IMG/VR virus record: IMGVR_UViG_3300045988_091431
Direction: 5' to 3' (one strand)
DNA: 29,377 nucleotides
Source: a virus
The notes beneath the pieces are model-generated. The model made no database searches and was not told where the DNA came from. It saw only the letters and a list, made by a program, of their open reading frames with translations. The position numbers were made by a program, and so were the translations under genes. This document shows, in pieces, positions 12,399-15,091 of the stretch (within the stretch, counting starts at the first letter, position 1; every line of letters begins with the position of its first letter).

Positions 12399-13352
12399 AT
12401 GCTCTCTCTCCAACGATCCTTCGAGAGAGCCTCCCAAACAGCCGCCGAACTGCCCCGCATACCACAACTAGAACCCCTCTACCGCAACCTGGACATGCAC
12501 ATTCACAAAGGGGATCTCGTCATGATCGCGGGGCGGTCCGGCAGCCAAAAATCCGGGCTAGCCATGTTCATCACCGCCATGCTCAACCAGCCCGCCCTCT
12601 ACATATCAGGGGACATGACACCCTGGGAGGCCTCCACACGAATCATCTCACTCAACACCCAACACACCACCGCCCAGATACAACAAAACATCGACGACTA
12701 CGGGCCAGAATACTATCGAGACAGCATCCACCACGGCCAACACATCACATTCTCATTCCAGTCACCCATCACATGGACAGACATCACCATGGAACTGCAA
12801 GCCTACATGGAAATGTGGAACACCTTCCCACCACTCATTGTTATCGACAATCTGATGGACATTCAAGACTGCGAATCCGACTATCAGGCCCAGCAAGAAG
12901 CCATGCAATGGATCACAGCATTAGGCAGGGACACGGGCTCCACCATTATTGTCACACACCACGCAACCGACAAAACCGGCTCCGACATAGAACACCCCCC
13001 GGCTAGGCGGGAAATCAAAAACGGCCTCTCCGAAAAACCACAACTCATATTGGGAGTCTCCCTGTATGGTGGCGAAGATAACGGCAACGGGCTCACCATC
13101 CCCGCCGAGGCACGCATCGCCGTACTCAAACAGCGCACCGGCAAATCCAGCCCAGACGGAACACGATACGAAAGACTCAGAGCCTACCCCGAATACACAT
13201 TCTTCGGACCACTCGCCGAAAAACAGCCATGGAACATGACCGAACACCACAAAGGACTATCATGTCGACACAACAGTCACGCAACCGCCGGGCCGGCGCA
13301 GAATGGGAAACACGACTCCTCCACCAGCTACGCGACACCGGCTATGATATAG
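12399..13352 (+). CDS. DnaB-like replicative helicase, RecA-fold ATPase domain only (317 aa)
   Basis: Walker A GRSGSQKSG and Walker B LIVIDNLMD. The last ~30 codons overlap the next gene out of frame. Confidence 0.75.
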   Translation: MLSLQRSFERASQTAAELPRIPQLEPLYRNLDMHIHKGDLVMIAGRSGSQKSGLAMFITAMLNQPALYISGDMTPWEASTRIISLNTQHTTAQIQQNIDDYGPEYYRDSIHHGQHITFSFQSPITWTDITMELQAYMEMWNTFPPLIVIDNLMDIQDCESDYQAQQEAMQWITALGRDTGSTIIVTHHATDKTGSDIEHPPARREIKNGLSEKPQLILGVSLYGGEDNGNGLTIPAEARIAVLKQRTGKSSPDGTRYERLRAYPEYTFFGPLAEKQPWNMTEHHKGLSCRHNSHATAGPAQNGKHDSSTSYATPAMI

Positions 13353-13618
13353 AACGCCTCCACCTCAACGGCCGCGAAGACGAAGGCGACCTCATCCTCA
13401 CAACCGGCAACAAAACATATGTGATCGAAGCCAAAGCCGGACAACCCCACCTAGCCCAATTCGTGAAACAAGCCAGCCGGGAAGCACGCAACTACGAAAC
13501 ACACCGAAACAAACAAAACAATTCCACCATCGGACTCGTCATCATGAAACAGCGCAACAAACCCTGGAGCGAAGCCTATGTGGTATCAACCCTCAACGAG
13601 CTCCTCCCACACCTCTGA
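13262..13618 (+). CDS. Hjc-like / PD-(D/E)XK Holliday-junction-resolvase-type endonuclease (118 aa)
   Basis: AGAEWE ... DEGDLIL ... VIEAKAG (E...D...E-x-K). ATG at 13262 with AAAGGA upstream. Overlaps the helicase 3' end by 91 nt. Confidence 0.55.
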   Translation: MSTQQSRNRRAGAEWETRLLHQLRDTGYDIERLHLNGREDEGDLILTTGNKTYVIEAKAGQPHLAQFVKQASREARNYETHRNKQNNSTIGLVIMKQRNKPWSEAYVVSTLNELLPHL

Positions 13619-13979
13619 CACCCGCCGCCTCCTCGACACCTACCAGATACGGTACAATCCATCCAAGAACGAGCAACACATCCTCTGCCCGTTCCACGAC
13701 GACCACCAGCCCTCCATGAGCATCAACCTCGACAAGGGCGTATGGTACTGCCACACATGCGGCATCGGAGGAGGACTCCACAAACTGAAACAACAATTAG
13801 AGAAAGAAAACCCTAATGTACGACTCACTACAACCCTACAACATTGCGGAACGCCGCCGAATCCAGAAAGCCTCAGCCCTCTACGAAACCCACCTCGAAA
13901 ACATACTCGACCTGCTCTCAGCAAGAGGCATCAGCGAAGAAACAGCCCGGCTCCACCACCTTGGATACATCGACAATGA
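13578..13979 (+). CDS. DNA primase N-terminal zinc-binding domain ORF (CHC2 finger: CPFHDDHQP...WYCHTCGIGGG), frame 0. Only the first ~75 codons look protein-like; the ORF runs to 13979 as low-complexity sequence
   Basis: Classic DnaG zinc-ribbon motif. The downstream Toprim domain is in the +1 frame. Confidence 0.6.
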   Translation: MWYQPSTSSSHTSDTRRLLDTYQIRYNPSKNEQHILCPFHDDHQPSMSINLDKGVWYCHTCGIGGGLHKLKQQLEKENPNVRLTTTLQHCGTPPNPESLSPLRNPPRKHTRPALSKRHQRRNSPAPPPWIHRQ

Positions 13980-14487
13980 CCCCATACCAGGCCACGAAGA
14001 CTACAACCAGTGCATCACCATCCCCTACATGTACCCCGTCTGGGGGGAGCCAGCCGAAATACGAAAAATGCGTTTCCGCTGCTCACTCCAGCATGATTGC
14101 AAAACCCACAACCACCCCAAATATCTAACCCCGGCAGGAGACACAGGCTCCATCTACAACATGGCCGCCATGGCCAACCCGGCAGCCGAAATGCACATTT
14201 GCGAAGGCGAATTCGACTCCATGATCCTCGAACAATGCGGATGGTCGGCCGTAGCACTACCCGGCGCAACCTCGTGGCAAACTTTCTGGACCAAATTTTT
14301 TGAAGGCTACGACCGCATCTACATCTGGTCCGACCCAGACAAAGCAGGCGACCAGATGGCACAAACCCTCCAGACGGCACTCCCCCAAGCCATACACGTA
14401 CCCCTCACTGTCGGGGATGTCACAGACACCTACCTGAAAACAGGCAAAACAGGGTTGACACAAGCACTAGACACAGTGCTACAATAA
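13816..14487 (+). CDS. DNA primase catalytic (Toprim) domain ORF (223 aa), frame +1 relative to the zinc-finger ORF
   Basis: ICEGEFDSM and SDPDKAGD Toprim motifs. ATG at 13816 with a GAGAAAG purine stretch upstream. Confidence 0.75.
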   Translation: MYDSLQPYNIAERRRIQKASALYETHLENILDLLSARGISEETARLHHLGYIDNDPIPGHEDYNQCITIPYMYPVWGEPAEIRKMRFRCSLQHDCKTHNHPKYLTPAGDTGSIYNMAAMANPAAEMHICEGEFDSMILEQCGWSAVALPGATSWQTFWTKFFEGYDRIYIWSDPDKAGDQMAQTLQTALPQAIHVPLTVGDVTDTYLKTGKTGLTQALDTVLQ

Positions 14488-14533: not shown

Positions 14534-15091
14534 ATGGACCCCCTCGACACATGCCCCATCCCCGGCCGCCGCGACACCAGCAAAGCCGCCAGGAGGCGTA
14601 TCCGCCTCGCCATCTGTGCAGAAAAATGGGCCGACGGCGTGGACCCACTCCACATCATGCACACCTGGGGCACCACCTATGATGGGATGCGATCCATGAT
14701 CCGCGCCAACCCCGACATTAGGCTACCCGACGACATGGCAAAACGGTTACACAAAATCTGCCGGGAAGCCTACCCCAAAAACCAGCCCAACAGGCACCGA
14801 AGCGGATGGGACCAATACGAAAAACAGTACTACACGGAGGAAATACTATTCCTCAACTCCTTCAACGTGCCAGCCCTCGAAATCCTTAACCGGCTCGACG
14901 TCTCGTGGACCATGTGGAAACACATCATCAACGAACAACACCTGACACGTTTACAGCAGGAAACCGACAACGCCTGCCAATGGGCAAACCTGCGAAAACA
15001 GCACCCCGACAAAACGGATCAGGAAATCACCCAGATGATGTACAGTAACCAAGTAACGTTCAGCAAGGTGATGAAAACCATACCCGCATAA
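14534..15091 (+). CDS. Hypothetical protein (185 aa)
   Basis: ATG with AAGAAAGG upstream, follows an AC-rich spacer. No recognisable motif. Confidence 0.6.
   Translation: MDPLDTCPIPGRRDTSKAARRRIRLAICAEKWADGVDPLHIMHTWGTTYDGMRSMIRANPDIRLPDDMAKRLHKICREAYPKNQPNRHRSGWDQYEKQYYTEEILFLNSFNVPALEILNRLDVSWTMWKHIINEQHLTRLQQETDNACQWANLRKQHPDKTDQEITQMMYSNQVTFSKVMKTIPA

Follow-up and report, generated by a model that had tools for sequence, protein, structure and literature searches.

Organization of the primase locus

The window, which is the whole stretch of 29,377 nucleotides that was analysed, is from a Cutibacterium acnes phage of the genus Pahexavirus. Two overlapping genes on its plus strand encode DnaG-type primase domains. 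The gene gp31 (13578–13979) encodes a stand-alone DnaG-type zinc-binding domain (ZBD) protein of 133 aa, assigned from its ORF, Pfam, AF2, Foldseek and dN/dS. The gene gp30 (13816–14487) encodes a stand-alone DnaG-type RNA-polymerase domain (RPD) of 223 aa, composed of an N-terminal subdomain and a Toprim domain. A preliminary description of this DNA had placed a CHC2 domain in frame 0 from position 13578 and a Toprim ORF in frame +1 from an ATG at 13816, and both were found there. Since gp30 is in the +1 frame relative to gp31, the 164 nt shared by the two genes (13816–13979, plus strand) encode gp31 residues 80–133 in frame 0 and gp30 residues 1–54 in frame +1. The gp31 stop codon TGA (13977–13979, plus strand) is located within AAT|GAC, the codons of gp30 Asn53-Asp54. 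It is positioned one codon earlier in 2 of 73 sequences, in which the overlap is 161 nt.

At its other end, gp31 starts over the 3' end of the resolvase-like gp32 (13262–13618), as seen from the ORFs and the annotation of relatives. The 41 nt shared by gp32 and gp31 (13578–13618, plus strand) have a very low diversity of 0.013–0.027 across all three codon positions. The DnaB-like helicase, gp33, is encoded by a separate gene at 12399–13352.

The two-gene primase layout is real, ancient and already known, and two "DNA primase" genes are its existing annotation (Marinelli 2012). In phages P105 and Moyashi, gp31 (402 nt) and gp30 (672 nt) are each labelled 'DNA primase' and have a geometry identical to that of the window, which bears out the statement in the preliminary description that annotations of C. 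acnes phages often list two adjacent primase genes. Some annotators leave gp31 out, and the annotation of phage pa35 has an ORF on the reverse strand there instead.

Structures of gp31 and gp30

The gp31 protein is composed of a ZBD core (residues ~8–77), a possible short last helix (residues 81–85), and a disordered, basic, proline-rich tail that extends to residue 133. The protein carries the motif CPFH...CHTC and matches the Pfam family Zn_ribbon_DnaG (PF01807) over residues 20–77 with an E-value of 1.9e-10. The zinc ligands (13686–13760, plus strand) are C37 (13686–8), H40 (13695–7), C58 (13749–51) and C61 (13758–60), and all four are invariant both across 12 aligned lineages and across 44 aligned homologues. 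AF2 predicts the core with a pLDDT of 84–89 and the tail with values below 60. The top Foldseek match is 1d0q, a DnaG ZBD (E 3e-4). Outside the overlap, gp31 has a dN/dS of 0.19, which indicates purifying selection. The Pfam match stops at residue 77, upstream of the overlap, and no canonical last ZBD helix can be recognised in this phage. Relatives have a Pfam ZBD match that reaches 6–13 residues into the overlap.

The gp30 protein carries the motifs CEGEFD and SDPDKAGD and matches Toprim_2 with an E-value of 2.4e-6. Its AF2 model (pLDDT 94.7, pTM 0.90) retrieves in Foldseek the DnaG of Aquifex (2au3), the E. coli DnaG core (1dd9/1eqn) and the T7 primase (1nui), with TM-scores over the whole protein of 0.71–0.74 to 2au3, 1dd9 and 1eqn. 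A profile search matches the same PDB chains and aligns residues 28–52 with the start of the Aquifex RPD. The acidic residues of the Toprim domain (14203–14340, plus strand) are E130 (14203), E132 (14209), D134 (14215), D173 (14332) and D175 (14338), with a further acidic residue, D201, at 14416. In an alignment of 54 sequences, no variation is seen at E130, E132, D134 or D175 and almost none at D173 or D201. The acidic residues line up with the DnaG motifs EGxxD and DGDxAG. The dN/dS of gp30 is 0.12, which indicates purifying selection. A helicase-binding domain is absent from gp30, as the protein ends at residue 223, right after the Toprim domain. The hallmarks of a DnaG-type primase found here are the CHC2 zinc ribbon in gp31 and the N-terminal subdomain, Toprim domain and acidic residues in gp30. 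The ZBD and the catalytic domain are encoded by separate ORFs, and neither a helicase-binding domain nor a fused helicase accompanies them.

Conservation of the two-gene layout

The region is matched by 232 phage records, and its conservation goes far beyond chance. Among 73 distinct sequences of C. acnes phages (Pahexavirus), drawn from isolates and metagenomes, there is no indel in either ORF and the +1 geometry is the same throughout. The split is therefore not the product of an indel, an option that the preliminary description had left open. A tblastn search with gp30 retrieved 1,497 phage records from phages of Mycobacterium, Streptomyces, Cutibacterium, Rhodococcus and Gordonia, and most of these records carry two CDS named 'DNA primase'. 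The best 150 of 309 strong profile matches are mostly stand-alone proteins of ~200–230 aa. The corresponding ZBD search found 576 stand-alone proteins, including the 'Gene 58 protein' of D29 and L5, and the 120 listed are 117–145 aa long. Many database entries for the second primase gene are truncated or in the wrong frame.

The overlap of a ZBD gene with a following catalytic gene in the +1 frame recurs at only 33–48% identity in L5, D29 and Bxb1 and in phages of Streptomyces, Rhodococcus and Gordonia. Nine lineages with identities of at most 52% have a ZBD ORF and a +1 catalytic ORF that overlap by 34–60 codons. The window has all the features of the actinobacteriophage two-ORF primases: an upstream ZBD ORF, a catalytic ORF in the +1 frame, an overlap in the range of ~100–260 nt, and homology of both proteins. 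The suggestion that the split is conserved and biologically real is thus supported more widely than had been expected, in lineages with 33–48% identity. Our literature searches turned up no biochemical or proteomic work on gp31, gp30 or their counterparts in the family.

The L085/L086 lineage is arranged differently. Its ZBD gene ends with TAA. GAGAGG comes next, with an ATG 12 nt downstream, and the two genes stand in a different frame relation. This separation assumes the ATG at 880; the gene caller took a TTG at 856, which gives a 13-nt overlap with the ZBD gene. Under either start, the arrangement implies that separate translation occurs in the family. A homologue in which the two domains appear directly fused, P0115, was set aside, as its C-terminus is also out of frame and the sequence looks like a frameshifted assembly.

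The gp30 start codon and a proposed two-subunit primase

The +1 frame is closed by a TAG codon (13798–13800, plus strand) 15 nt upstream of the gp30 ATG. This TAG is present in most relatives, and the others have another stop 27–96 nt upstream. Therefore, any frame switch must occur at or after position 13801, in agreement with the interval of 13800–13818 given in the preliminary description. The purine-rich tract GAGAAAGAAAA (13800–13810, plus strand) is located within gp31 and is likely a Shine-Dalgarno-like element of gp30. A purine tract is found in every junction variant, similar tracts precede gp26 and gp29, and in distant relatives the corresponding position is occupied by GAGGAGG or GAAGGAG. 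The A-rich run at 13800–13812 has more the appearance of a ribosome-binding tract for gp30 than of a slippery run. The Shine-Dalgarno-like tract of this phage is weak, which counts against the synthesis of two polypeptides.

The gp30 start codon ATG (13816–13818, plus strand) is present in all 73 distinct sequences. The homologous codon was compared across 92 unique cluster-A-like sequences and is TTG in 47, ATC in 36, ATG in 6, GTG in 2 and ATT in 1, all of which are start codons of table 11. In the sequences examined, it is positioned 6 nt past a GAGGAGG-like tract. The codon is preserved because the ZBD frame uses TTT or TAT here and never the synonyms TTC or TAC, whereas elsewhere the ratio of TTC to TTT is 362:42 and that of TAC to TAT is 396:33. 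Comparison of these phages shows that the gp30 start codon is under selection. Approximately 40% of the unique cluster-A-like sequences, including Bxb1, offer only ATC or ATT, which are weak initiators, and this counts against two polypeptides.

We propose, with a probability of about three in four, that gp31 and gp30 form a two-subunit DnaG-type primase, whose overlapping genes would be translated separately and whose ZBD would act in trans. Initiation at the gp31 ATG would produce a free ZBD with a basic, proline-rich, disordered C-terminal tail. Ribosomes would initiate gp30 independently at the ATG inside gp31, in the +1 frame and behind a purine-rich tract that is itself gp31 coding sequence, and its product would be a complete catalytic RPD. 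The ZBD would select initiation sites and the Toprim subunit would polymerise the primer, presumably at the fork and together with the DnaB-like helicase, the product of a separate gene. The 164-nt overlap would represent true dual coding rather than recoding, with frame 0 finishing the ZBD and its tail and frame +1 encoding the first catalytic helices. When they belong to different primase molecules, a ZBD and an RPD are still able to cooperate in trans (Larson et al. 2010, PMC2978363).

The overlap and the tail of gp31

The frame-0 continuation of gp31 forms a 54-aa tail containing 11 prolines, 10 basic residues and one acidic residue. It is low in complexity, predicted by AF2 to be disordered, and not alignable between lineages. 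The preliminary description had dismissed it as proline-rich nonsense. The word nonsense is probably wrong, as stops are avoided and a tryptophan near the C-terminus is fixed by a rare codon. It is nevertheless conceivable that two polypeptides are made and that the tail (residues ~93–133) is a functionless read-on to the first off-frame stop, which would be 54 codons into gp30 by chance alone; we consider this rather unlikely. This judgement is conditional on the two-subunit model and is not additive with those on the other alternatives.

Inside the overlap, the gp30 frame is clearly selected, with a dN/dS of 0.28, and its dS is 0.108 vs 0.294 downstream, a 2.7-fold reduction. The gp31 frame has a dN/dS of 1.5, similar to the 1.2–1.4 of off-frame controls, as a functionless tail would have, although this similarity cannot decide whether the tail is selected. 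The trough in synonymous diversity over the overlap (0.071 in a sliding window) is matched in the helicase gene (0.069) and is therefore not decisive alone.

Synonymous T variants that would create a stop in the gp31 frame are found at 0 of 11 sites in the overlap vs 13 of 27 downstream (p 0.006), which argues against a functionless read-on. Similarly, the stop-free run is longer than expected over nine lineages, with a combined p of 7e-5. The signal of this test appears only when the lineages are combined. In this genome alone, the run is not significant: ~21% of 53-codon windows are stop-free in the same off-frame, as read-on would allow, the geometric P is 0.45, and a codon-resampling simulation, made with imperfect gene calls, gives a P of 0.03. 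The position of the stop ranges from codon 35 to 60 among lineages, which also fits a tail without function.

Close to the gp31 C-terminus, Trp129 is encoded by a TGG (13962–13964, plus strand) that is formed from the gp30 Leu49 codon CTT (13960–13962) and the GG of Gly50. The CTT of Leu49 is fixed in 73 of 73 sequences, whereas CTT accounts for only 1 of 67 leucine codons in neighbouring genes. The 120 best of the 576 stand-alone ZBD homologues have a tryptophan within the final 1–6 residues. In phages of cluster A, the tryptophan and the stop arise together from two rare codons, CCT and CAT. Across lineages, the tryptophan is produced by four different codon contexts, and the non-overlapping tail of L085 still terminates in ...RYVPSWRR. 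The fixed CTT, the coupled rare codons, the four contexts and the L085 tail argue against read-on. The terminal tryptophan is missing in the L102, L136, L211 and L254 groups and in Bxb1-like phages, whose tail is different and longer, and the other frame, through its conserved motifs LG[YF]V, RGI and PGHE, partly dictates the R-I/L-R and W motifs; both points favour read-on.

On balance, the gp31 tail, within which stops are avoided, seems to be maintained. We lean slightly towards the view that the tail with its near-terminal tryptophan is a functional peptide, which may, for example, act as a tether between the ZBD and either the catalytic subunit or the helicase. More speculatively, and with less than even confidence, we suggest that the tail could be overprinted yet selected, and that its disordered basic arm and tryptophan motif could dock the free ZBD on the catalytic subunit or helicase and replace the covalent linker of DnaG. 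The large actinophage family would then use a true two-subunit DnaG primase, in which some catalytic genes, such as that of Bxb1, start at AUC and neither a frameshift nor bypass is involved.

Recoding as an alternative

The Bxb1 homologues have been described as 'likely expressed as a single protein' through a frameshift or bypass whose mechanism is unclear (Hatfull laboratory, 2025, PMC12646305). By analogy with this proposal for Bxb1 gp50/gp51, a programmed +1 (or −2) frameshift or a bypass near 13801–13845 could fuse the ZBD to the catalytic domain in the window, alone or beside separate products. We consider this improbable. The +1 relation and the long overlap are kept over deep divergence, and a frameshift that is itself conserved could, in principle, leave such a +1 relation as its trace. 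The frame relation would, however, be locked anyway, because the sequence is constrained in both frames. Fused homologues occur in nature, the catalytic ORF of Bxb1-like phages starts without ATG, GTG or TTG, and a Shine-Dalgarno-like tract is positioned just upstream of the junction as in prfB, all of which would suit recoding.

The junction itself speaks against it. The codons vary within Pahexavirus (GAG AAA GAA, GAA GAA GAA or GAA GAA AGA) and are unrelated in other lineages, and we found no conserved slippery site or shift-prone codon among the Pahexavirus variants or between lineages. In this phage, there is no frame-0 stop before 13977 and no recognisable hungry codon at the junction. 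Folding of 13790–13920 gave no significant RNA structure (z = −1.44) that could act as a stimulatory element, and Rfam has no match in the window. A bypass take-off and landing pair with a stop after the take-off site is also absent, as frame 0 stays open for 54 more codons, to 13979, and the skipped stretch would encode the conserved gp30 residues 1–54. In cluster-A-like phages, TTT-G and TAT-C are incompatible with one slippage mechanism. Furthermore, the downstream ORF always opens with an initiation-type codon held in place by rare codons of the other frame, which a shift site would not need, and L085/L086 are non-overlapping with another frame relation.

In most lineages, one set of nucleotides encodes both the canonical last ZBD helix (F.EA..IAE.L) and, in the other frame, the first catalytic helix (LS.SQR..L..A), so that a ribosome cannot produce the two in a single pass. 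Any fusion protein would lack one of these helices, both of which are conserved, whereas naturally fused relatives have the two in tandem, joined by a basic linker of ~20–30 aa. This argument is drawn from relatives, as the last ZBD helix is not recognisable in the phage of the window. Two further mechanisms were rejected: transcriptional slippage, because no A run at the junction exceeds 4 nt, and a +1 shift at the PPPW/stop end of the overlap, because the fusion product would miss the folded first 50 catalytic residues, which fused homologues keep.

The preliminary description had weighed two polypeptides against +1 recoding without choosing between them. The comparative evidence, which includes the selected start codon, the lack of a conserved slippery site and the L085/L086 arrangement, is more in favour of two polypeptides than of recoding. 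A sequencing or assembly indel at this position, or a gp31 that is a decaying remnant so that only gp30 matters, is exceedingly improbable: gp31 is skipped by some annotators and an A-rich junction is an indel-prone kind of place, but the A run is at most 4 nt, the same geometry is found in 73 distinct sequences and in lineages 33–48% identical, and gp31 has a dN/dS of 0.19 and invariant zinc ligands.

Significance and the Bxb1 genome

The two-ORF primase is carried by ~1,500 sequenced actinobacteriophages, which include the therapeutic and biotechnological workhorses Bxb1, D29 and L5, and C. acnes phages considered for acne therapy. If the primase is a natural two-subunit DnaG enzyme, it would offer a clean system for studying the action of a ZBD in trans and an example of a conserved overprinted tail. 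A rule for genome recoding would also follow, which is to preserve both frames together with the internal start codon (ATG, TTG or ATC).

When the Bxb1 genome was synthesised, its failure to reboot was linked to a 'silent' change within the overlap (PMC12646305). We considered this as evidence of an essential tail in the ZBD frame and dropped it: the CAG-to-CCG change falls in the catalytic frame (ERWQVVSLRF) and therefore says nothing about the tail. The Bxb1 gene numbers in that report appear swapped relative to NC_002656.

Comparison with known systems

The DnaG primases of E. coli, Aquifex aeolicus and G. stearothermophilus share with the window the CHC2 zinc ribbon, the N-terminal subdomain with the Toprim domain, and the acidic residues. 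Their ZBD can act in trans on the catalytic domain of another molecule (PMC2978363), as is proposed for gp31. Bacterial DnaG is a single chain composed of a ZBD, an RPD and a C-terminal helicase-binding domain, whereas the window has separate ORFs for the ZBD and RPD and no helicase-binding domain. The catalytic core of gp30 is compact, with 223 aa compared to ~320 in DnaG.

The primase-helicase of T7 gene 4, with its 63-kDa and 56-kDa forms, is likewise a phage member of the DnaG family with a small ZBD and a Toprim RPD (1nui). A form lacking the ZBD is reportedly also made, by internal initiation, and the ZBD works across subunits of the hexamer (Dunn and Studier 1983; Bernstein and Richardson 1988). 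Both T7 forms are products of one gene in the same frame and are fused to the helicase, whereas the genes of the window are in different frames with a 164-nt overlap, and the helicase gene is separate.

The +1 frameshift of prfB/RF2 and the bypass of T4 gene 60 resemble the locus in that one functional unit is divided between two ORFs offset by +1, with a Shine-Dalgarno-like tract upstream. Unlike these systems, the window has no conserved shift codon before a slow or stop codon, no take-off and landing pair and no stimulatory structure, and its downstream ORF has its own conserved start codon.

The closest resemblance is to the two-ORF primases of actinobacteriophages, which comprise gp31 and gp30 of P100D and P105, gp58 and gp57 of L5 and D29, gp51 and gp50 of Bxb1, and the equivalents in Streptomyces, Rhodococcus and Gordonia phages. 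The Pahexavirus ZBD differs from the others in having lost the recognisable GD..I...EG..F.EA pattern of the last helix. The start codon of the catalytic gene is a plain ATG in Pahexavirus vs TTG or ATC in cluster A, and the tail ends in ...PPPWIHRQ vs ...RGRxTPWS. These actinobacteriophage systems share with the window homologous proteins, a ZBD-first gene order, the +1 frame, a long overlap, and a neighbourhood with a DnaB-like helicase and a resolvase, and the genes of the window are the Pahexavirus members of this family.

The two open reading frames and their products

The window comes from a Cutibacterium acnes phage (Pahexavirus), and 1.4 kb around its primase region matches 232 phage records at 80–98% identity. 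The gp31 ORF (13578-13979, plus strand, 133 residues) encodes a CHC2 zinc ribbon (Pfam Zn_ribbon_DnaG, E 1.9e-10, residues 20-77). The gp30 ORF (13816-14487, plus strand, 223 residues) encodes a Toprim domain in the +1 frame relative to gp31, which it overlaps by 164 nt. A TAG at 13798-13800 (plus strand) closes the +1 frame, and the frame-0 continuation of gp31 is a 54-residue tail containing 11 prolines and 10 basic residues. The preliminary description, which placed the CHC2 motif of a split primase in frame 0 and the Toprim domain in the +1 frame, is correct in all details.

The predicted structure of gp30 (pLDDT 94.7) superposes over its full length on the DnaG catalytic cores of Aquifex (2au3) and E. 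coli (1dd9, 1eqn), with TM-scores of 0.71–0.74, and also on T7 primase (1nui). A profile search matched the same PDB chains and aligned residues 28-52 with the first residues of the Aquifex RNA-polymerase domain. Alignment of 54 homologues shows the Toprim acidic residues to be conserved. The protein lacks a helicase-binding domain; a DnaB-like helicase is encoded by a separate gene at 12399-13352. The core of gp31 (residues 8-77, pLDDT 84–89) has the zinc-binding domain (ZBD) of DnaG, 1d0q, as its top fold match, and residues 83-133 are predicted to be disordered.

The first 41 nt of gp31 (13578-13618) overlap the 3' end of the resolvase-like gp32 (13262-13618; weak NERD match). Nowhere else in the region is diversity so low at each of the three codon positions (0.013–0.027), which fits a second short dual-coding segment. 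Directly downstream of the primase lies gp29 (14534-15091; full-length Pfam DUF7188 match, E 5e-113), which is kept there even in locus L084, where the gp30 homologue is 48% identical.

The overlapping layout among actinophages

The overlapping two-ORF layout is ancient and widespread. With tblastn, gp30 matched 1,497 phage records, from hosts including Mycobacterium (978), Propionibacterium/Cutibacterium (233), Streptomyces (206), Rhodococcus (45) and Gordonia (28). In most of these records two "DNA primase" coding sequences lie side by side, as in L5 and D29 (gp58 and gp57) and Bxb1 (gp51 and gp50). A profile search of 1.84 billion representatives gave 309 matches below 1e-30, and most of the best 150 are stand-alone proteins of about 200–230 residues. 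True fusions (P0013, P0029, P0055, P0088, P0136) are in the minority; in these, an intact ZBD is joined to the catalytic domain through 20–30 or so residues of basic linker. Stand-alone ZBD proteins number 576, the best 120 of which span 117–145 residues.

Nine lineages sharing no more than 52% identity have the catalytic ORF in the +1 frame relative to the ZBD ORF, which reaches 34–60 codons into it. The sole exception is L085/L086. There the ZBD gene stops at TAA, after which come GAGAGG and, 12 nt downstream, an ATG, and the frame relation differs; the gene caller chose a TTG at 856 instead of this ATG, producing a 13-nt overlap.

Many low-GC (43–45%) environmental phages from IMG/VR metagenomic contigs (L102-L134) have the same overlapping pair. 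Their catalytic-gene Shine-Dalgarno (SD) sequence GAAGGAG is formed by ZBD codons K-E-G (AAA GAA GGA G), and their ZBD tails end in ...PR[LI]R..., without Trp. Database annotations of the gene pair are often wrong. For gene 59 of Mycobacterium phage Et2Brutus (L141, MF140410.3, 758-1093), labelled "DNA primase", the annotated frame lacks the zinc finger. The catalytic genes of Streptomyces phage Sitrop (L142, 1138-1560) and Rhodococcus phage CosmicSans (L143, 1087-1560) are shortened by about 60–80 codons, so the overlap with the ZBD gene is lost as annotated. The gp30 homologues P0060 (533 residues) and P0127 (527 residues) are interrupted by inserts of about 300 residues; a scan of the P0060 insert found a LAGLIDADG domain, and it is presumably an intein or homing endonuclease. 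The N-terminal region is similarly disrupted or extended in three cluster-A loci (L276-L278).

Two polypeptides or a recoded fusion

Of the options first raised for the split, comparative evidence favours two polypeptides over recoding, and with it a natural two-subunit DnaG-type primase from overlapping genes. We put the probability of this two-subunit model at roughly three in four. All 73 distinct sequences (the window and IMG/VR loci) keep the gp30 ATG, which follows a purine tract resembling those before neighbouring genes. In 92 unique cluster A-like sequences, the homologous codon is TTG (47), ATC (36), ATG (6), GTG (2) or ATT (1), each a table 11 initiation codon, and lies 6 nt past a GAGGAGG-like tract in the sequences whose junction was displayed. 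Its first two bases come from a ZBD-frame codon that reads TTT or TAT in 90 sequences and CGT in the other two, never TTC or TAC, although elsewhere in these genes TTC:TTT is 362:42 and TAC:TAT is 396:33. The start codon, ATC included, is thus under selection. Two caveats are that the SD-like tract of the window phage is weak and that ATC is a poor start codon.

Joining of both ORFs by frameshift or bypass is unlikely, although a 2025 study put it forward for Bxb1, whose ORFs it regards as "likely expressed as a single protein" by a mechanism that is unclear (PMC12646305). Neither a shift nor a bypass would require selection on a start codon. The junction has no conserved shift-prone codon, within Pahexavirus or across lineages, no notable RNA structure (folding z -1.44) and no Rfam element. 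In most lineages, the last canonical ZBD helix (F.EA..IAE.L) and the first conserved catalytic helix (LS.SQR..L..A) are encoded by the same nucleotides, and in relatives the Pfam ZBD match reaches 6–13 residues into the overlap. A single ribosome pass therefore cannot yield both helices, which natural fusions carry in tandem. This dual constraint would explain why the +1 relation is frozen. A further caveat is that in Pahexavirus itself the last ZBD helix is degenerate, because the Pfam match ends at residue 77.

An indel or sequence error is contradicted by the same junction in relatives, as all 73 sequences lack gaps in either ORF and keep the +1 relation (overlap 164 nt, 161 nt in two). Purifying selection acts on both proteins, with dN/dS of 0.19 for the non-overlapping part of gp31 and 0.12 for gp30. 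As the preliminary description suggested, C. acnes phage annotations list two adjacent primase genes: P105 and Moyashi have gp31 (402 nt) and gp30 (672 nt), each annotated "DNA primase", in the geometry of the window, and genes 30 and 31 of P100D encode DNA primases (Marinelli et al. 2012, PMC3448167). The split is thus real, conserved and previously annotated, and is not new as an observation. In pa35 (L003, 1887-2066), a reverse-strand ORF is called where gp31 sits.

Possible maintenance of the gp31 tail

The frame-0 continuation had been called proline-rich nonsense; it is proline-rich, but several features point to a maintained tail. None of 11 overlap sites carries a T-ending synonymous codon that would place a stop in the gp31 frame, versus 13 of 27 comparable downstream sites (p 0.006), and "safe" T-ending variants occur at 10 of 32 overlap sites. 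Leu49 of gp30 is CTT in 73/73 sequences, yet nearby genes use CTT for one Leu in 67; CTT followed by GG produces Trp129 of gp31. Across the nine lineages, the stop-free run exceeds the prediction from local off-frame stop density (combined p 7e-5). All of the best 120 of 576 ZBD homologues have a Trp within six residues of the C-terminus, in endings such as ...RGRxTPW[STA] and ...RRTW[ND][IL]; the window phage has ...PPPWIHRQ. This Trp stems from four other-frame codon contexts (R-G, L-G, V-G, P-G). The Trp and the stop of cluster A arise jointly from the rare codons CCT (64% at this site versus 12% elsewhere) and CAT (67% versus 14%). The L085 tail, though non-overlapping, keeps a Trp in its ending, ...RYVPSWRR.

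Against a maintained tail, the motif is in part forced by the conserved other-frame motifs LG[YF]V, RGI and PGHE, and the terminal Trp is absent in Bxb1-like phages and the L102, L136, L211 and L254 groups. Two measures are not decisive: dN/dS of the gp31 frame in the Pahexavirus overlap is 1.5, equal to off-frame controls, and synonymous diversity as low as that of the overlap recurs in the helicase gene. There, third-position diversity at 12615-12776 is 0.069, versus 0.15–0.29 in the rest of the gene, although no overlapping ORF is annotated; a recombination tract, sweep or hidden constraint is possible.

Provided that there are two subunits, we lean slightly towards a functional tail, with an inferred role such as tethering gp31 to the catalytic subunit or helicase. 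The tail ends in APPPW (13950-13964), and both PPP and PPW strongly stall ribosomes in an EF-P-dependent manner. We speculate that a stall there, about 140 nt into gp30, could alter ribosome traffic across the overlap.

Comparison with Bxb1 and other primases

In Bxb1 (L144, NC_002656; reverse complement, about 1325-1345 and 1573), the N-terminus of the catalytic ORF lacks ATG, GTG and TTG, and an ATC lies 6 nt after GAGGAGG. The annotation places the start of gp50 at MYKGML, which is 60 codons too late. Gene numbers in PMC12646305 appear swapped relative to NC_002656. That study tied a failed Bxb1 reboot to a changed PaqCI site. The only such site in the overlap is GCAGGTG, in which CAG is a catalytic-frame codon (ERWQVVSLRF) and GCA and GGT are ZBD-frame codons. 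The reboot-linked Gln to Pro change therefore struck the catalytic subunit, not the ZBD frame, and has no bearing on the tail or recoding. A primase of two subunits departs from the frameshift or bypass idea of recent literature; also in favour of separate translation, cooperation in trans between ZBD and catalytic domains of different primase molecules has been described (PMC2978363).
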